DNA of 23,453 bases, taken from the NCBI GenBank assembly GCA_019058295.1, contig JAHPZI010000012.1, positions 1 to 23,453 of the forward strand. The letters are read 5' to 3'. The stretch's first letter is position 1. Each line of letters begins with the position of its first letter. The notes under the pieces are model-generated. The model did not search any database. It was given only the letters and a program-made list of their open reading frames with translations, and was not told the DNA's origin. The stretch comes from Promethearchaeota archaeon. Its GTDB lineage: Archaea > Asgardarchaeota > Lokiarchaeia > Sigyniarchaeales > SOKP01. Shown here in pieces: positions 4,181 through 15,887 of the stretch. The position numbers were made by a program, and so were the translations under genes.

Positions 4181-4963
4181 TTATTCAGCCACTCTTGAAG
4201 GAATAACAACAATTTCATCTCCTTCTTCAAGATTATAATCCTTCAAAACTAGATTCTCATCAAAAGTAATACCACCGCAGGATAAGTGAAAATTTGCGGG
4301 TTTTAGACCAAATAAATGTCCAACCGTTTCTTTAAGGGCGCTTATCTTATTATTCAAATTAATATTTAAATCTCGTGTTTTCTCTCCTGGGTTTAATATT
4401 GAGATGATAAAAATATTAATCAATGGTTCAAGCTTGATTTCAAGAGGCTCTTTAATATATGGTTTCTTATCAATTTCCTTTAACTTATCAATTTGAGGTT
4501 CTAAAGATACTGGTTTTGAATTTATTTCGGATTCGCATTCCAAATTTGGAATACACGTAACTTTGGGATTTTCTTCTTCAAACTCAACCATTTTATCTAC
4601 TTCTAATTTAGTTAAAAGTTCTTTCAAGTGAAGATTTTCTTCTTCTAAACTCATTATTTTATCAATTAATTTTTCAGTAATTTGCTTCGTGAGGTTCTCA
4701 GAAAAAATATTAGTATTTTCAATTTCTATAATTTCAACAGCTCGGATGTGCAACTGAGCATCAATATAAAGAATAGTTAGTAGATCTTCTAAGTTATCCT
4801 CAGACGAGTGAAGAAAAACAAATGGAAAAGGAAATGCAGTTCTATTTTCAGTTATGTTTTTTGGTATTTTTATATTATGAATTATCTTACATTTTGGGCA
4901 ATTATAAAACCTATTTAGATATTCTGGCTCTATTGATGTGTCGTAATTAGAGTCTTCAGACAT
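4181..4963 (-). CDS. Zn-ribbon-like domain + coiled coil + C-terminal ubiquitin-like domain lacking the terminal Gly
   Basis: N-terminal CPKC...FPFVFLH...YIDA. The last 79 aa align without gaps to the Ubl at 9883..10230 (37/79 identical by hand count) and end SRVAE. Confidence 0.85.
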   Translation of the reverse strand: MSEDSNYDTSIEPEYLNRFYNCPKCKIIHNIKIPKNITENRTAFPFPFVFLHSSEDNLEDLLTILYIDAQLHIRAVEIIEIENTNIFSENLTKQITEKLIDKIMSLEEENLHLKELLTKLEVDKMVEFEEENPKVTCIPNLECESEINSKPVSLEPQIDKLKEIDKKPYIKEPLEIKLEPLINIFIISILNPGEKTRDLNINLNNKISALKETVGHLFGLKPANFHLSCGGITFDENLVLKDYNLEEGDEIVVIPSRVAE

Positions 4964-5881: not shown

Positions 5882-7054
5882 TTATCCTTTTCTTTTGTAC
5901 TCTTTTATTACTTCTAAATATGTTTTGACTGGAATTACCTTAGGATTTCGGAGAAATGATGGTGGAATTGGAGCGTCACATCGCGAACAGAGTGGTGATG
6001 CCTTAGCCCAGTCTTTAAATTCATCAGCGTGAGCAGGATGTCTACAATTTGGACAAATTACAATCCCTCGCCTTTCATCAGCAGGAATCTTTGGTAATTC
6101 AAAGCAAAATATACATTTAAAATCTTCTAACGATAATATTCCTGCCTTTGGCATTAATTTTTCGTAGCTTGGTCTTGCTACAGCGCTTTGGCGAGAGGGT
6201 GTTGGACTTGAGGCAGCCTTTTGACGAGAGGGTCTTGGTCTTGATGTGCTGGGTGTCGAAGTCCGTGTGGTTGCGGGTCTGGAAGTTCTAGGAGTTGCGG
6301 AGCTAGAAACTACAGGTCGTGAAGGAGTTGTTGGAGTTGCTCTGGGAGCTGCAGGTCTTACAGGTGTTGATGTTATCCCTTCTAAACGCCTTCTTCGGCG
6401 AGCAAGATAATCCGACGATAGTTCAGGTACAGCGCGCGGAGAACCAAAAATAGCATGCCTGACAAATAAATATATTAAAACGCAACAAACGAATATAAGC
6501 ATAAAATCAAAACTAAAATAATAAGTCTGTTGGACAATATAAAAAAAATAATAAAAAACCACAATGTTATAATTAACCATGTAAGATATTAGGATAATCA
6601 AAATAAAAATCACATAAAAAATCACAAATTTTCGAGCATTTAAGGACCGCGTACGGAAGATATATACAACATAAAATTTAGTAAAACAAGATCGAAGTGT
6701 CCATAAACTATATAAAAAGTATGGAAGAGCAAAAATTATGATCCACAAACTAATATATAACCGTGGAAAAAAATCTTGCAATAGATTTTCCCCCCAAAAT
6801 CCTGTAAAATAGCTCCATATACTGTAAAACATTGCTACACCTAAAGGACATAAAAGAAAAAAAGAGGTGTTTTTAGGTGAGTTATATTCTTTATACTCTT
6901 TTCGCTTTTGAAAAAATTTAATTGTAAAAAGAATCCAAAGCCCAATTAAAACTATTGAGAGAAAAGTATTCCACGACTCCAATATAATTAAACCATAAAA
7001 TAAAGCTATACCAATGGTAAACAGTAGTATTAAAGCTGTTCTTATCTTCAGCAA
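5882..7054 (-). CDS. Membrane-anchored RING-variant protein, putative E3 ligase
   Basis: About 6 TM helices, a Pro/Ser/Thr/Arg low-complexity linker, then CIFC-x16-CPNC-x4-H-x2-E-x3-W-x6-CSRC. Last gene of the Ubl-E1-E2-JAMM run; GGTGA precedes the TTG start. Confidence 0.75.
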   Translation of the reverse strand: MLKIRTALILLFTIGIALFYGLIILESWNTFLSIVLIGLWILFTIKFFQKRKEYKEYNSPKNTSFFLLCPLGVAMFYSIWSYFTGFWGENLLQDFFPRLYISLWIIIFALPYFLYSLWTLRSCFTKFYVVYIFRTRSLNARKFVIFYVIFILIILISYMVNYNIVVFYYFFYIVQQTYYFSFDFMLIFVCCVLIYLFVRHAIFGSPRAVPELSSDYLARRRRRLEGITSTPVRPAAPRATPTTPSRPVVSSSATPRTSRPATTRTSTPSTSRPRPSRQKAASSPTPSRQSAVARPSYEKLMPKAGILSLEDFKCIFCFELPKIPADERRGIVICPNCRHPAHADEFKDWAKASPLCSRCDAPIPPSFLRNPKVIPVKTYLEVIKEYKRKG

Positions 7055-7091: not shown

Positions 7092-7892
7092 TTATCTTTC
7101 TTCAAATTCAAGATCTGTAGCTTTATTTTCTACTATGGGACTAAGAAACTCTAATAGTTCGGGTAGAGCTCTTACATCCAATGCTCCTTTTACGAGAAAA
7201 GGGACCTTATTATATCTATTTGATTTAAAATCCACACGATATATCTCAAATCCATAGGAATATCCATCGATTTTAAAAGGGTCCATTACCAATGCTACAG
7301 AATCTTCCCATTGTTTTTGAAAATTCGAGTGGGTTTCAAAGTCGTCAGAACTGAGAAAGAGTCCATGAGATGGATGAGAATGATACCATCCACATATAAA
7401 TTGGCCTAACTTTTTTAGATGCTTAAAAACTTTTGTAAATTTACTTGAATCTCTCATAAACACATCTACGACTGAAACAATATCGCCATGAGTTATTGGA
7501 TAGGCGTTTACAATATGAAGTTTAGGACCATAATCATACATCTTTCCTCCCAATATTCCAAAAACTTCACACCATTCTCGTTTAGGTAAACTACGATTTG
7601 CAAATTTTAATGAATGTGTGGCAATTTTGAGAATTGCTTTAGTTGATATACTTATTGTTACTTTATCCAATAAATCCTCTTTCTGATTTGGTTCAGTTAT
7701 TTGCGTTGATTCAACTGGAGTAAGCAAATTTTCCTCACTTAATCGAGAAACTACAGCGTCAGTTAAGCTTTCTTTTTCAGATTTTAGCTCTGTATAGACT
7801 TCATTGAGAATTTCCTTTTTTAATTTCTCTTTAATTTGCTGTTTCATATCATCCTTAATAGTATCTTCATTCAATTCATCATCTTCAGGCAT
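7092..7892 (-). CDS. JAMM/MPN+ metalloisopeptidase (Rpn11/CSN5-like)
   Basis: EVFGILGG...GWYHSHPSHGLFLSSDD matches the E-xn-HSH-x7-S-x2-D JAMM motif. It has an acidic helical N-terminal extension. Confidence 0.95.
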   Translation of the reverse strand: MPEDDELNEDTIKDDMKQQIKEKLKKEILNEVYTELKSEKESLTDAVVSRLSEENLLTPVESTQITEPNQKEDLLDKVTISISTKAILKIATHSLKFANRSLPKREWCEVFGILGGKMYDYGPKLHIVNAYPITHGDIVSVVDVFMRDSSKFTKVFKHLKKLGQFICGWYHSHPSHGLFLSSDDFETHSNFQKQWEDSVALVMDPFKIDGYSYGFEIYRVDFKSNRYNKVPFLVKGALDVRALPELLEFLSPIVENKATDLEFEER

Positions 7893-7912: not shown

Positions 7913-8440
7913 TTACCATTTCTTATTAGCATATTTTTTTACTAAAAACTTAACTTTTTTCTCAAATTCCTTTTGATTTTTCATTGCCTCTATTGCGGCC
8001 TTCTTATTAAATACGTCTGTCGGATTAAAAAATTTCCCTCGTGTATTTAACATAGCTGTTATTGCTTGTATTACAGTTACGATGGTCTTACTTGGCGACC
8101 AGCCCCCTTTTTTACCTACATAATTAGGATCTACTAGGGCTAGACAAATATTCCTCTGTCCCGGGTATTCGTTAGGTTTGGCCCAGAAATTTGGGTGCCA
8201 AATCGCTGTATGAAGTCGCACAAAGGGAGGGTGATTTGGATAATTTGGAGGGTATTTGATCTCTAGTTTAAAAAGTCCTCCTTGATAGGCTGTCTTTTTT
8301 GGACCCTTTAATAATACAGCAATATGATCTATACTTTTTTTTTTAGGATCAAATGGTTTTAATTGTGTTATTACTCCAGTTTTTACCATCTTCTTAAGAG
8401 CGGCAAAGTCCTGTGAAATTCGTGAACTTCTTAAACTCAT
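7913..8440 (-). CDS. Ubiquitin-conjugating enzyme E2 (UBC fold)
   Basis: GPKKTAYQGGLFKLEIKYPPNYPNHPPFV, IWHPN, catalytic ICL and WSPSKTI motifs. Confidence 0.95.
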   Translation of the reverse strand: MSLRSSRISQDFAALKKMVKTGVITQLKPFDPKKKSIDHIAVLLKGPKKTAYQGGLFKLEIKYPPNYPNHPPFVRLHTAIWHPNFWAKPNEYPGQRNICLALVDPNYVGKKGGWSPSKTIVTVIQAITAMLNTRGKFFNPTDVFNKKAAIEAMKNQKEFEKKVKFLVKKYANKKW

Positions 8441-9882: not shown

Positions 9883-10230
9883 TTAGATCCCTGCAGTCGA
9901 AGCAGGAATAAGCAAAACCTCATCGCCATCATTCACGCCGTATTGACTCAATGGGGCACCCTCATCCATAGTTACCCCCCCAGAACTCAAATGAAAATCG
10001 TTTGGGTCTAAACCGAATATATTTCCAACTGTCTGCTTGATAGCTGATACATTATTTCCATCGTCAACTAATAATTTTTGTCTTTTTTCCCCAGGGCCAA
10101 TCGTGCTGAGGAAAAACAAATTAATCTTATTACCTCCTGCAGGTGCCGTTGCTGCTGGTGTTTTACTTCTTTCTGGCTGTTTCTCCTGTGGCTCTTCTCC
10201 TAAGTCCTCATCAAAATCAAATTCTCCCAT
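9883..10230 (-). CDS. Ubiquitin-like modifier precursor with an acidic N-terminal extension and C-terminal AG-I
   Basis: The beta-grasp pattern (SAIKQTV, FHLSSGGVTMDEGAPLSQYGV..GDEVLL) aligns with ubiquitin [20 protein letters not shown]. It is the first gene ahead of E1/E2/JAMM. Confidence 0.92.
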   Translation of the reverse strand: MGEFDFDEDLGEEPQEKQPERSKTPAATAPAGGNKINLFFLSTIGPGEKRQKLLVDDGNNVSAIKQTVGNIFGLDPNDFHLSSGGVTMDEGAPLSQYGVNDGDEVLLIPASTAGI

Positions 10231-10373
10231 ATTATTTAAACTCCAAAATTTTTTATTTTATTATTTTGTTTAAATTTAATATATACAATAACTATTTAAT
10301 CATTTTGCTCTTAAATAATTTTATATAAAAAATTACATTTAGTTAATGAATTAATAGAGTTTGATTGTATAAA
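10231..10373. promoter_or_regulatory. Divergent promoter region with a TATA-like element
   Basis: TTTTATATAAAA near 10319..10330 is palindromic and lies between divergent genes. The AT-rich background lowers specificity. Confidence 0.35.
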
Positions 10374-11279
10374 ATGTCAGATAAACCTCCTCCTAAATAT
10401 ATGATTAAAGATAAAACTCCCTCTAAAGAAGAAATAATTGTTGCAGATAAAACATTGCTTAAAAAGATCATAGATGAGCGTAAATCCTTAGAAAAGGAAA
10501 AAACTGAATGGGAAAGTACGCTTAAGAAAATGCAAGCATATCAAGAGTCATTTAAAGAATTAGAAAGAAAAAGAAAAAGCATCGAAAGTGAGATAAGGGA
10601 TTTACAGAATGAAAAAGACAGATTAAATAAAACGCTTAATGATATACAGAATGATATCAATGGTGAAAAAAAACAAATCGAAAATCAAAAACGAATTATT
10701 GAGGACTCCAATAGGAAATTAAAAAAGCAACGTAATTATATAGAAAAGCAATCAAATGTTCTCAAAAAACAACAAAAAGACTTTAATAAAATAAAACGAG
10801 ATATAGAGAACGAAAGGAAAGCTTTGGATCGTGATAGGAAAAACGAGGAGAATCAATTAAAAGATATCAAAAGTAAGATCCCTCCATTAGAAAAACGGAG
10901 TAATACTTTGGACAATAAGGTTAGAAATCTTGAAAATAAGCAACAAGATTTAAAAAATGATGTGAAAAGATTAGAAAACCAAAAAAGTGCGCTTACATCT
11001 AATATTCAAAATGAGAAAAAGAAACTCCAAAATGAGAAAGATAAAATAGATTCTTATGTTCAAAACGAGAAAAGGAAAATAGAGAATGAAAAATCTCAAA
11101 TCAATAACGAAAAAAATAATATAAAGCGTGAAAGGGAAAAATTAAATAAAGAAAAAGATAATTTAAGACGAGATCGTGAAAAACTTGATGCTGAAATCAG
11201 AAAACTGAAATCTATTCCTAAAAAACCAATAAAATCTAAAACTCCTGCTATAAAATCCAAAACCCCAAAAGGATATTAA
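10374..11279 (+). CDS. Long coiled-coil protein with a basic KSKTP tail
   Basis: About 250 aa of near-continuous heptads (IQNEKKK LQNEKDK, IENEKSQ INNEKNN IKREREK LNKEKDN). ATG at 10374 is preferred to TTG at 10365. Confidence 0.8.
   Translation: MSDKPPPKYMIKDKTPSKEEIIVADKTLLKKIIDERKSLEKEKTEWESTLKKMQAYQESFKELERKRKSIESEIRDLQNEKDRLNKTLNDIQNDINGEKKQIENQKRIIEDSNRKLKKQRNYIEKQSNVLKKQQKDFNKIKRDIENERKALDRDRKNEENQLKDIKSKIPPLEKRSNTLDNKVRNLENKQQDLKNDVKRLENQKSALTSNIQNEKKKLQNEKDKIDSYVQNEKRKIENEKSQINNEKNNIKREREKLNKEKDNLRRDREKLDAEIRKLKSIPKKPIKSKTPAIKSKTPKGY
11229..11267 (+). repeat. Imperfect tandem repeat (21-bp period) encoding IKSKTP twice
   Basis: ataaaatctaaaactcct at 11229 and ataaaatccaaaacccca at 11250. 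Confidence 0.7.
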
Positions 11280-11398: not shown

Positions 11399-11656
11399 TT
11401 GAACTCTGAATCTCGTGCCATTTTAATGCGGAAATTGATGACAATCTGTCCAGTCTGTAAGAAACAAATTTACGGCAGAGATATTGATATAAAAAATATT
11501 GAGAAATCCAGATCGAAAATTGATCATTGGCCTCTAAGATATGTACATTGTCACGATAACGGTAACTTCCCTATGCATGCTTTAATGATTTATATTGACG
11601 CTAATTTTTCTGTTAGAGGGCTGGAAACTTCTAATTTTGTAAAAATTCAAGAATAG
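11399..11656 (+). CDS. Small putative Zn-binding protein (CPxC...HxH...H...YIDA)
   Basis: Shares motifs with the N-terminal domain of 4181..4963. GAGG lies upstream of the TTG start. Confidence 0.75.
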   Translation: MNSESRAILMRKLMTICPVCKKQIYGRDIDIKNIEKSRSKIDHWPLRYVHCHDNGNFPMHALMIYIDANFSVRGLETSNFVKIQE

Positions 11657-11667
11657 CTCTAATTTTT

Positions 11668-13749
11668 TTATTCTTTTTTATATTCGCCCTCTTGATCACT
11701 ATAAATACCTGCGCCTGGGTCAAGAAATTGGTTTTGACATGCTGGACAAGAGTTATATTTTGATAACCAAAATGCTACGCATAGATAGTGATAAACTGCA
11801 TCACAGAAAGGGCATTTTATTATCTGTTCTTTTGCAAAATCAAATTGTTTATGACAAACACCGCATCTAATCTTGTCAGAAGTGATTCCCTCGCGAATCT
11901 TTACTCTATTAGCTAGTGTTTTCTGTAAATTAGTTAATTCTGATTGGTAAAGATATATTTCTTTGCTCAAATTTTCTATTCTCGAATTAATTTCGCCAAT
12001 CCTCTCGTTAAGCTCTTCTTCTGTTAATTTATCAACTAAAAAATCTGATAACGCAAAATTTAATGGGACAGTTTCGATTGTGTCATTTTGAGCTTTAATT
12101 TCTGTTATATGCTCAAGCATTAAATCCTCTTCTTCAATCAACTCTTTAAAATTTTTAAATAATTTATTTAGCATCATAGATAGGAGGAAACTTAGTTGCT
12201 GCTTTTTAAGAGTAAAATTATCTTCCCATTGTTTAATGATTTGGTAAATGTCAATATCCTTTTCTTTATAAAAATCTAGTTTTTTATACACTTCATCTTT
12301 AATTTTTTGAATACTTAATTTGTACTTACTTAGAATATCTCGAATTTGTTTTATCTGAGGAAATTCTTCTCTTACTATTAAAGCTGTATCATCTTGATAT
12401 TTACTCATTAAATCATTTACTTCCGTAATTTTCTCATATATAAAATTTCTGACACGATCACGCAATCTTTCCTTTCTAACCGTTTTTAAAAAGAATACGT
12501 ATTCCTCATTTCTCCGATTTATTTCAGAAAGCACATTTTCAATTGTTTTTTTATAAGATTCAGTTACCTCTTCATAAGGGGTTAAGCACCATCCAAATTC
12601 GTTAATATATTCTAATATCTTCTCAATTAATGAGTAAAACAACTCAGTTTTTTCAGAATAGAACTTTGCTATATTTTTAAATTCGTCATATTCTTTTAAA
12701 TCGCTAATTGTTGTTTGATATTTCTTTTCTAAACCACTTAGATAATATTCTGCTATTTTGGGCAGGTATAAGCTAAACTTTTGCTCTAAAAAAGTTTTTA
12801 AATTAAATTTCTTTTTATCTTCTTCTAATTTATATTTCTTCTCCAATTCCTCTATTTCATTTAGTAAATACTTTAATTTATCTTCGATTAGAGATTTAAT
12901 TATGGGGCGTAAAAATTTTTTTAATTTCTGGATTATCTCTTTCCTATCCAAAACATTCACAAATTCACCGAGATCCTCAACCTCATTAAATTCTTCAATC
13001 AAATTATTCTGAAATAGAAGAAAAATCAAATCAGAATAAATATTAATTTTATCATCTTGTTTTCTATTAAAAAATTGATAGATATCATTGAAATATGAAG
13101 TTAAAAATACTCCTTTTTTCTTCTTTTTCCTTTTTTTAATAGAATCCTGATTAGATTCCTCTATAAAATCATTGAGTTCCTTTATCTCGTCCCATTTTGT
13201 TAATATACTTGGAAAATTATTTATCTTTAAGTTCAAGTTTTTAATTTTATTTATTTCAATCCAAATATACCCGATATTATCATAAACTCCCTCTAATTTA
13301 TGTAAGGAATTTTCAAATTTATTAATTAAATCGTCGCTTTCATCAATTAAACTCTGTACCGTCATCATACATTGTTCTAAATAGGAGTTTTTTTTTAAAA
13401 ATCGTTTAGTATTTCGACAATTCAATTTTAAATTAAGTAAATTATTTGAAAAAAGCTTAAGCTCTTCCAAAATTCCTGATTTTAAATTATGAAAATTAAT
13501 TATTTCAGCCCCTTCTTTAGGTAATAGATAAAGGTCAGCGAAATTTCTTATTTCTTCTATATAATTCGAATAGGAATCGAGAATCTCTCTTGAAAATTTG
13601 GTCTTTAAAAAATCATCAATCTCAGTCTCAGTCTGGTCTGACTTTTCAGCCCTAAATTTATCTATAGTTCTTTTGATGTCTAAAATATTTTCCTTTGAAA
13701 AGCCTAATATTTCTCGAACCTCGTTAAATACGTTATCAGTAATTTTCAA
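11668..13749 (-). CDS. Helical/coiled-coil protein with a C-terminal C4HC3 RING finger, putative E3 ligase
   Basis: CGVC-x13-CPFC-x4-H-x2-C-x3-W-x6-CPAC at 11737..11865, preceded by about 600 aa of charged helical sequence. Confidence 0.85.
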   Translation of the reverse strand: MKITDNVFNEVREILGFSKENILDIKRTIDKFRAEKSDQTETEIDDFLKTKFSREILDSYSNYIEEIRNFADLYLLPKEGAEIINFHNLKSGILEELKLFSNNLLNLKLNCRNTKRFLKKNSYLEQCMMTVQSLIDESDDLINKFENSLHKLEGVYDNIGYIWIEINKIKNLNLKINNFPSILTKWDEIKELNDFIEESNQDSIKKRKKKKKGVFLTSYFNDIYQFFNRKQDDKINIYSDLIFLLFQNNLIEEFNEVEDLGEFVNVLDRKEIIQKLKKFLRPIIKSLIEDKLKYLLNEIEELEKKYKLEEDKKKFNLKTFLEQKFSLYLPKIAEYYLSGLEKKYQTTISDLKEYDEFKNIAKFYSEKTELFYSLIEKILEYINEFGWCLTPYEEVTESYKKTIENVLSEINRRNEEYVFFLKTVRKERLRDRVRNFIYEKITEVNDLMSKYQDDTALIVREEFPQIKQIRDILSKYKLSIQKIKDEVYKKLDFYKEKDIDIYQIIKQWEDNFTLKKQQLSFLLSMMLNKLFKNFKELIEEEDLMLEHITEIKAQNDTIETVPLNFALSDFLVDKLTEEELNERIGEINSRIENLSKEIYLYQSELTNLQKTLANRVKIREGITSDKIRCGVCHKQFDFAKEQIIKCPFCDAVYHYLCVAFWLSKYNSCPACQNQFLDPGAGIYSDQEGEYKKE

Positions 13750-13865: not shown

Positions 13866-14483
13866 TTATTCCCCAAGTTCTTTAATTTCAATATGTTTTT
13901 CCTTAGCTCCGTCTTTTGTGATCGTGAGAATATCAATACCATTTCCGGACATGGCATCTCGCTTCATGGCGGCCTTCATTGCTTTTTCAACCAGTTTTTC
14001 ACCTTCTACAACGCTCATCTCTTTTTTATATTCCGCTTCTAAGACTCCTATCGATAATAGCATTCCGGTTCCAGCAGTTCCGTAGTCATCTGGCATTAAT
14101 GAACCAATAGCATCAAGTGTAAAGAGTTTTGGACCATCTTTATCCACACCTGCAATAACCAAATTAGTATATAATGGATACATTTTTCGTGAATATAAAT
14201 AATTAGAAACTAATTTCCCCATGCTTTGAGTTGAGATTCTCTCTCCGGCATCTAACAAGTATAAGTTAGCTTGCGCTCTCATAATCTTGACTAAGATTTG
14301 GAAGTCTCCTATAAGCCCGTAAGCTGCTATGCCAATATAATCCGTGATTTTGAATACTTTCTTCGTAGATTTATTTGCTACTGTATACCCCCATGTAGCT
14401 CTATTATCATTCCCAAGAACTACTCCATCCTTACATTTAATAGCTATACCACATGCCCCTGGTACCATAATTTGCTGAGACAT
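13866..14483 (-). CDS. psmB: 20S proteasome beta subunit, non-catalytic type (Thr1 replaced by Ala)
   Basis: KDGVVLGNDNRAT, KKVFKITD, GLIGD, AGVDKDGPKLFTLD.IGS, GTG and RDAMSGNGID motifs. PG-ACG replaces the usual G-TTT. Confidence 0.95.
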   Translation of the reverse strand: MSQQIMVPGACGIAIKCKDGVVLGNDNRATWGYTVANKSTKKVFKITDYIGIAAYGLIGDFQILVKIMRAQANLYLLDAGERISTQSMGKLVSNYLYSRKMYPLYTNLVIAGVDKDGPKLFTLDAIGSLMPDDYGTAGTGMLLSIGVLEAEYKKEMSVVEGEKLVEKAMKAAMKRDAMSGNGIDILTITKDGAKEKHIEIKELGE

Positions 14484-14690: not shown

Positions 14691-15887
14691 ATGACTGAAG
14701 TAATGATATGGGATCCTATTGACCGTCTCTTATGGGGAGTAGCAATTTCACTGTTATTTTTATGTAGTCTTGTCTATTTATATCGGGGTATAAATCGGGA
14801 AGCAAAAAATGAAAAAGGGATTATGTATGGATTTGCTGGCGTCCTTTTGGGATTAGCTATTTCTAGAATTTTCTTTTTTATTGCTGATCTACAACTTGCG
14901 GGAACCTTTAAACAAGGTATTTTTTACGGGGAGCTTGATATGAGTAATCTTAATTATAATTTTTACTTAAAATGTGCGTATATCTCAACCATTTCTGGAA
15001 TACTCTTCTTTACCTATAATTTCGAAAGAATATTAAAACGTACTCGTTTTATTCTCACCATAATAAGTTCGACTTTTCTAATTCTAGTAATAATTAGCCC
15101 TTATAACATTTCAAATGTAATCGTGAATGCTTTATTGCCAGGATTTTCAGTAGTGCTGATGCTTGCGGTGGCCTATATTATGACGAAATGGTCGGCAACT
15201 GAGTTTAAAGCGATTGCCTCATTGTTATTTATTTCTTTTCTCTTCTTTTTTATGGGAATATTCTTATATAATCCCGTTGTTAAAAATTCTAATGTAATTC
15301 CAGTGTCAATTTCACCTATTTTTTTTATTATGGGAGCATCAATAGCAGCATCTCCATTGATTATAAAACCAGAGTATGTATCACGCCCTTCCCTCTATTG
15401 GGGTGTAATTGGTTCTATAACTCTTGGAATTGGATTACTCGTGAATTTCATAATAATATTTTATGGTTTACCACCATTATATTCTTTTTTGGGTCTCACA
15501 CTAGCCGTTATATTAGTTTTTGTATTATTGCGTATCAAGAAAGTTATACAGGTGGAAATTACTGGGAGAGATGCCGAACAAGGACCAAATATTTTAGCAA
15601 TGTTTGCAAGACCTCAAAGAGTAACAGAGGAGGAAGTATCCATTTCTAAAGAAAAGAAAATTTGTTTAGTATGTAAGGGAAAACTTGCTAGATATAACAT
15701 ATTTCTCTGCCCTGAATGCAATACGTTTTATTGTTCAAAATGCGCCAATGCTTTAAGTGACCTTGAGAATGCCTGTTGGGTTTGTGAAGTGCCGTTTGAT
15801 GAATCCAAGCCTGTTAGATTATCAGAAATAAAAGAAGAAGAAGAATTTGGTAAGAATAACGATTTTAAGAAAAAAAAAAAGAAATGA
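14691..15887 (+). CDS. Roughly 9-TM membrane protein with a C-terminal C8 RING-like zinc finger
   Basis: About nine hydrophobic helices followed by CLVC-x11-CPEC-x4-CSKC-x10-CWVC at 15663..15785. Confidence 0.8.
   Translation: MTEVMIWDPIDRLLWGVAISLLFLCSLVYLYRGINREAKNEKGIMYGFAGVLLGLAISRIFFFIADLQLAGTFKQGIFYGELDMSNLNYNFYLKCAYISTISGILFFTYNFERILKRTRFILTIISSTFLILVIISPYNISNVIVNALLPGFSVVLMLAVAYIMTKWSATEFKAIASLLFISFLFFFMGIFLYNPVVKNSNVIPVSISPIFFIMGASIAASPLIIKPEYVSRPSLYWGVIGSITLGIGLLVNFIIIFYGLPPLYSFLGLTLAVILVFVLLRIKKVIQVEITGRDAEQGPNILAMFARPQRVTEEEVSISKEKKICLVCKGKLARYNIFLCPECNTFYCSKCANALSDLENACWVCEVPFDESKPVRLSEIKEEEEFGKNNDFKKKKKK

Follow-up and report, generated by a model that had tools for sequence, protein, structure and literature searches.

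The window analysed here, a stretch of 23,453 nucleotides from a Lokiarchaeia-type Asgard genome, contains five co-oriented genes for a ubiquitin-like modifier (Ubl), an E1, an E2, a JAMM isopeptidase and a hydrophobic RING-like protein, the modifier gene being the first (Table 1). The modifier frame translates to 115 residues with the C-terminal end IPASTAG-I, that is, a single glycine preceded by alanine and followed by one masking residue. The N-terminal arm holds nine acidic and eight proline or alanine residues, in keeping with the acidic, Pro-Ala character originally noted. The homologues of this protein are referred to below as the AG family, by their Ala-Gly end, and modifiers with the usual di-glycine end as GG modifiers.

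Table 1. Features of the modifier locus (coordinates of the window)
Feature	Position	Strand	Remarks
AG-terminal ubiquitin-like modifier, 115 aa precursor	9883..10230	-	PF00240 E 2e-5; AlphaFold pLDDT 93
Beta-grasp domain, residues 36-114	9889..10125	-	AlphaFold model and structure searches
N-terminal arm, residues 1-35	10126..10230	-	acidic F-D-E-D-L patch, then K-T-P motif
R-S-K23-T-P arm motif	10156..10170	-	candidate chain-acceptor lysine (inferred)
A113-G114 terminus and masking I115	9886..9894	-	I115 tail not kept across the family
Canonical-type E1, 411 aa	8533..9768	-	ThiF E 2e-56; member of the AG-specific E1 clade
E2, 175 aa, HPN and Cys99	7913..8440	-	UQ_con E 4e-25; insertion between HPN and Cys family-wide
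JAMM isopeptidase	7092..7892	-	JAB E 2e-11; Glu and HxH-x7-S-x2-D motif intact
Membrane-anchored RING-like protein, candidate E3	5882..7054	-	weak RING match, E 0.06
Zn-ribbon fusion to paralogous domain	4181..4963	-	Gly-less end in source genome; many relatives end STAG
Coiled-coil protein, divergently encoded, candidate substrate or partner	10365..11279	+	four I-K-x-K-[TI]-P motifs
I-K-x-K-[TI]-P motifs in the neighbour	10404-10421, 10866-10883, 11229-11246, 11250-11267	+	

No more than 6 kb from the operon are the genes of a coiled-coil RING protein (11668-13749, minus strand), a proteasome beta subunit (13866-14483, minus strand) and a further membrane protein with a RING-like end (14691-15887, plus strand). 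The Cys-x2-Cys domain from the N-terminus of the Zn-ribbon fusion also occurs as a stand-alone protein, at 11399-11656 (plus strand) of the window and at C14:75049-75435.

The modifier has the ubiquitin fold. All 44 aligned AG members match the Pfam ubiquitin family PF00240. The best Foldseek hits of the AG model are the Caldiarchaeum ubiquitin (6fno, E 8e-8), ubiquitin and ISG15, and the VIA search gave ISG15 at Z 14.4 (rmsd 1.6 over 77 aligned residues) and ubiquitin at Z 13.7. The profile alignment to ubiquitin pairs G76 with G114, G75 with A113, I44 with S82, K48 with V86 and K63 with D101, reproducing every residue pairing of the earlier hand alignment; K11 (K49 here) and K27 (K65 here) are both retained, and downstream of K65 the sequence contains neither lysine nor arginine. 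These assignments hold for the family: among 231 AG members the position equivalent to I44 is serine in 220 and that of K27 is lysine in 218, and the equivalents of K48 and K63 are never lysine. The expected inability to form K48 or K63 chains is thus borne out, but other chains are possible, as K65 and arm lysine K23 are conserved. Larger proteins with a C-terminal AG-type domain and an intact glycine were also observed, namely Roadblock, HerA-like ATPase, Zn-ribbon and tandem two- or threefold fusions (P0164, P0173, P0181, P0215, P0122; L346:10075-11583, minus strand). They could be attached whole via their own C-termini.

The Ala-Gly terminus is a property of the whole family. The modifier has 753 database homologues and is matched in 196 of 400 Asgard genomes, spanning Loki- and Heimdall-type lineages. 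In an HMM-anchored count over 237 homologous domains, gathered by an HMM blind to the C-terminal residues, 233 have AG and none has GG at positions 75-76. Of the other four, one is the Zn-ribbon fusion of the window, and the rest seem to be frameshifted or truncated. An AG end specific to one strain, or produced by a sequencing error, can therefore be dismissed. The Ile tail recurs in three further MAGs (L031, L032, L005), and thus is not a read error. The prediction of a distinct modifier class is upheld, the class having a conserved single glycine and no equivalents of K48 and K63. One contig binned as Bacillota (L045) carries an AG modifier at 70% identity together with the coiled-coil neighbour; it is probably a mis-binned Asgard contig.

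The tail behind the glycine is much less constant. Of 231 members, 133 (58%) have no tail, and in the others its first residue is any of 18. On a tree of 193 sequences the tail appears or disappears at least 41 times, compared with about 60 when shuffled. The source genome itself encodes a paralogue in the mature form, ending at AG (C22:3495-3878). Hence maturation by JAMM, which had been proposed for the class, is required at most by copies with a tail, such as the present one, and is no class trait. The free drift of the tails suggests that a protease cutting after AG exists. In the small cluster of this paralogue (C22:2715-3878), a shorter frame of the RING family comes after it, and a Gly-less fusion paralogue lies alongside. 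Another Ala-Gly modifier, in family f5, ends in RSIAG plus a tail and is encoded in a Ubl-E1-E2-JAMM operon (L274/L349:6078-6341, minus strand; L275/L359:2329-2577, plus strand). It is nearer to ubiquitin than to the STAG family, and possibly represents an independent change from GG to AG.

The clustering of the genes for the Ubl, E1, E2, JAMM and a RING protein with hydrophobic segments is kept in Loki- and Heimdall-type genomes, and the catalytic motifs of E1, E2 and JAMM are intact and conserved among orthologues. The operon E1 has the GxGGxG motif, the Mg-binding Asp and the catalytic Cys195 within C-T-x4-P-x4-H-C. It scores 130 bits on UBA2, 125 on UBA1, 123 on UBA3 and 54 on UBA5; one Heimdall-type orthologue scores best on UBA3. 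Past the catalytic Cys, AG-linked E1s retain C-[TS]-x4-P-x4-H, as do UBA1, UBA2 and UBA3, whereas the ESCRT-type E1s lack it. A few E1 columns are particular to the AG clade, e.g. Gly49, His167 and Tyr169; in a search of the AG-clade E1 alignment for a change making room for Ala75, no column could be assigned from sequence alone. The insertion between HPN and Cys in the E2 is conserved in all 29 orthologues read, and Ubc9 is the lowest among the best 60 E2 hits. Thus profile scores and motifs agree with the original assignment of the partners as a canonical E1 and an HPN-type E2 rather than UBA5 and UFC1. The orthologues of the RING gene have two to six hydrophobic segments in all lineages sampled, and one matches zf-RING_2 with E 3e-4; in the family, one of the metal-ligand positions is frequently occupied by Glu. 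In Heimdall-type clusters (L334-L339, L341, L344) the RING gene is adjoined by the gene of a membrane protein of about 190 residues with four to six hydrophobic segments, for which no Pfam match was found.

The same context bears on whether the protein is conjugated at all. MoaD and SAMP proteins have similar C-terminal spacing, and one paralogue in the source genome lacks the glycine, as would suit a sulfur carrier like MoaD or SAMP, or an adaptor that is not conjugated. However, the terminal glycine is invariant, genes for E2, RING and JAMM are linked, and the E1 is of the canonical type. In the Pfam comparison ThiS matched only 3 of the 44 AG members, and these weakly (best E 0.04), compared with 44 of 44 for ubiquitin. 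Either role is very unlikely.

The original prediction also considered a relationship to UFM1, suggested by the single terminal glycine and by a UFM1-like loop and tail. In the profile alignment the STIGP loop (T-x-x-P in UFM1) and the IP-x4-G end are indeed in register with UFM1, represented here by 13 eukaryotic sequences from metagenomes. However, this affinity is generic. The Asgard GG ubiquitins, which have SAIGG at the position of the loop, score equally against UFM1: hhalign gave 12-26% for them and 11-18% for the AG profile, whereas the latter reached 94% against ubiquitin and 97% against the Asgard GG ubiquitins. PF03671 (Ufm1) is absent from the Pfam families listed for the 44 AG members. 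A scan of 400 Asgard genomes with the Pfam Ufm1 family yielded nothing above the cut-off and no AG-family hit.

One weak hit of that scan led to another family (f22, f24), named DLLG here. Its members, found in six genomes by a DLLG query, end in [RK]-D-[LV]-L-G and are encoded near a ThiF-type E1 of about 275 residues (L262:1471-1779, plus strand; L263-L267). Profile comparison of the DLLG family gave 88-91% with UFM1 and below 2% with AG, and a 78-column tree groups the family with UFM1 (support 100/98, long branches). When the DLLG model was used as a positive control, UFM1 filled Foldseek ranks 1-13, and thus the test can detect UFM1; the leading hits of the AG model are ubiquitins. In the wide VIA-align search UFM1 is in neither the AG list nor that of the positive control, and thus this search is uninformative on UFM1. 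The AU test did not reject monophyly of AG and UFM1 (p 0.29, on 78 columns). Ufm1 homologues have already been reported in Asgard archaea (PMC12962969), which would leave room for an AG tag that is itself UFM1 in its Asgard form, or the precursor of UFM1, keeping a canonical E1 and E2. Since the AG profile scores no higher against UFM1 than GG ubiquitins do, the fold sides with ubiquitin, and the DLLG family takes the UFM1 hits, this can hardly be the case: by profile and fold the AG family groups with ordinary ubiquitin. By sequence and model, the DLLG protein is a candidate for an archaeal UFM1, and the small E1 for the enzyme that activates it; the family may correspond to the Asgard homologues already published.

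The AG modifier is encoded in addition to GG modifiers. The source genome has a GG modifier at C26:60075-60266, an orthologue of Lokiarch_37670, the GG modifier used by Hatano et al. (PMC9192718). All 17 AG genomes tested hold a GG-type modifier (the GG end itself was read in 16), these genomes being related, partly incomplete MAGs and not independent observations. In the E1 tree, all AG-linked enzymes fall into a single clade (SH-aLRT 99-100), separate from the clade of GG/ESCRT-type E1s; one half of it is Heimdall-type and the other mainly Loki-type. Both E1 clades are present in families f13, f15 and f16, and one GG ubiquitin of f13 has a C-terminal end identical to that of HeimAB125_14240. 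Conversely, the AG-type E1 is absent from ten Loki-class genomes in which no AG tag was detected, a sample of kin that are partly incomplete. The GG modifier of Lokiarchaeia has no adjacent E1. At C4:38774-41646, with no modifier adjoining, there are a second E2 and a 527-residue E1 (C4:40000-41646) with the canonical Cys motif, which are the probable partners of this stand-alone modifier. Relatives of the C4 E1 of about 800 residues have two ThiF domains (P0276). A third Ubl cluster of the source genome (C28:182753-185107) contains a GG modifier, a divergent E2-like gene, a 293-residue E1 and JAMM, and a 106-residue GG modifier with an N-terminal extension has its own E1, E2 and JAMM in f16 (L356:6075-10170).

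One alternative is a redundant, divergent ubiquitin paralogue that shares the enzymes of the GG tag, with Ala-Gly as a tolerated substitution. The clearly ubiquitin-like fold, the lack of an E1 beside the Lokiarchaeia GG modifier and the existence of another AG-ending ubiquitin in f5 would all be consistent with it. However, the alanine is invariant and never reverts to glycine, the tag has its own E1 clade and is lost together with it, and the GG tag is left with another E1 and E2. We consider this alternative improbable. Judging from sequence conservation, gene linkage, catalytic motifs and co-occurrence, the AG tag probably serves a ubiquitin-type conjugation cascade that Asgard archaea have in addition to, and apart from, that of GG ubiquitin.

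The N-terminal arm is about 33 residues long in 113 close orthologues, and occurs in Heimdall-type members too. Among the close orthologues the acidic patch is present in 104 and SKTP in 108. K-[TIV]-P was found in 200 of 211 arms, the full form being I-K-S-K-T-P or a variant. The same motif recurs in the coiled-coil neighbour, where four copies were observed and 0.04 expected from local shuffles, with a pattern defined after inspection of the data; of 12 neighbours examined, 10 have more copies than their local shuffles. In the tails of 24 orthologues of the neighbour, the Lys and Pro of the motif are the only invariant residues. The neighbours in Heimdall-type clusters are non-homologous, basic, low-complexity proteins rich in lysine and proline, with three to nine copies of the motif. 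Among the other ORFs of 20 loci the motif occurs in 11 of 257, all 11 being cluster-linked neighbours. Genome-wide there are 10 matches against 1.8 expected, four of them in the modifier locus or paralogue; given so few matches, there is no global consensus like that of SUMO.

Two explanations of the motif have to be weighed. The tag may be conjugated with the motif serving as an element for docking, phosphorylation, or binding of nucleic acids or membranes, and not as an acceptor lysine. T-P resembles proline-directed phosphorylation sites, the Heimdall-type neighbours are basic, K/P-rich and of low complexity, and few other proteins carry the motif. This explanation has slightly less than an even chance. 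Its phospho-threonine version, however, is disfavoured, since many copies have Ile, Val, Arg or Lys in place of the Thr, and Lys and Pro stay; accordingly, the pattern of substitutions favours an acceptor lysine or docking over a phosphorylation site. In SUMO2/3 the arm lysine sits in the substrate consensus. By this analogy, the lysine of [IP]-[KR]-x-K-[TIV]-P may be the preferred acceptor, with chains on the arm and decoration of the neighbour; this is possible, but rather doubtful. If so, the tag would form chains via its own arm and decorate its motif-rich neighbour. A complex prediction for E2 with the motif tail of the neighbour scored 0.07 and carries no weight for either explanation.

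For the AG cascade as a whole, the following order of events is the most likely. The operon JAMM would trim the one-residue tail of this copy, exposing Gly114; otherwise it would strip the tag from substrates, most orthologues needing no trimming. The operon E1 would adenylate Gly114 and then form a thioester at Cys195, from which the tag would pass to Cys99 of the E2. The membrane RING protein would aid transfer to substrate lysines, independently of the GG tag. Three features would insulate the tag from the enzymes and readers that serve GG modifiers: the alanine in place of G75, the P-x-S-T tail and the polar face at the I44 position. K65 and arm lysine K23 would be available for chains. 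Small changes at Gly75 are tolerated by eukaryotic E1s, and onward transfer of such variants can be blocked (PMC3731359); the latter fits a need for co-adapted enzymes.

Ubiquitin-like proteins with dedicated E1, E2 and E3, such as ubiquitin, SUMO and NEDD8, are usually viewed as a eukaryotic diversification. Two distinct systems of protein tagging probably existed already in the archaea that are the nearest kin of eukaryotes. If the second full cascade in Loki- and Heimdall-type lineages is real, diversification of Ubls would predate eukaryotes, and a canonical E1-E2-RING cascade would naturally handle a residue other than glycine at position 75. The cluster encodes the complete enzyme set as well as a candidate substrate, in which the site of modification can be predicted. 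It is a more speculative and rather unlikely extension that a common ancestor of Loki- and Heimdall-type lineages had two orthogonal Ubl cascades, and with them a SUMO-like logic of the AG tag (a motif read by E2, arm chains and a multiply modified neighbour), its E1 maybe standing nearer to the origin of UBA1, UBA2 and UBA3 than the ESCRT-linked E1.

Operons of this type have been described before, in Caldiarchaeum (PMC5654768, PMC6043591) and in Asgard archaea (PMC9192718). In the literature outside subscription journals we found no description of the AG subfamily, of a dual system or of the arm motif, and the biochemistry found there for Asgard archaea and Caldiarchaeum concerns GG ubiquitins only. 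The ubiquitin operon of Caldiarchaeum subterraneum encodes CsUb, E1, E2, a small RING protein and CsRpn11 (PMC5654768, PMC6043591). The AG cluster resembles it in the co-occurrence of all five types, and CsUb is also polar at the I44 position (Thr46). However, CsUb has a GG end, a nine-residue propeptide and a lysine near K48, and its RING is small and soluble, whereas the AG system has the AG end, usually no propeptide, the 35-residue arm, a membrane RING and the E2 insertion.

The ubiquitin-ESCRT system of Asgard archaea was described with GG ubiquitins (PMC9192718; bioRxiv 2023.07.25.550441); the E2 A0A0F8VF99 of Lokiarchaeum GC14_75, an apparent orthologue of the operon E2, is within the source alignment of the former study. 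These GG ubiquitins (Lokiarch_37670, HeimAB125_14240) have the profile nearest to AG and occur in the same genomes. However, they are short, end in GG, and most use the separate E1 clade without P-x4-H-C after the catalytic Cys.

Among the remaining systems, UFM1 is like the AG tag in the single terminal glycine and the spacing of the tail, but works with UBA5 and UFC1; the E1 and E2 of the AG tag are unlike these, and it has no specific profile or fold affinity to UFM1. SAMP, MoaD and URM1 are of the ThiS/MoaD type and use a MoeB-type E1 and no E2, whereas the AG tag has a canonical E1 and a linked E2. SUMO, which runs with SAE1-SAE2 and Ubc9 beside ubiquitin, has the consensus psi-K-x-E and a GG end. 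SUMO2/3 share with the AG tag the flexible arm, a conserved lysine motif also found in a candidate substrate and, probably, a cascade parallel to that of ubiquitin. This is analogy rather than membership: the AG tag has K-[TIV]-P instead of psi-K-x-E and AG instead of GG, and in the profile searches its E1 scores about equally on SAE2, UBA1 and UBA3, its E2 appearing unlike Ubc9.
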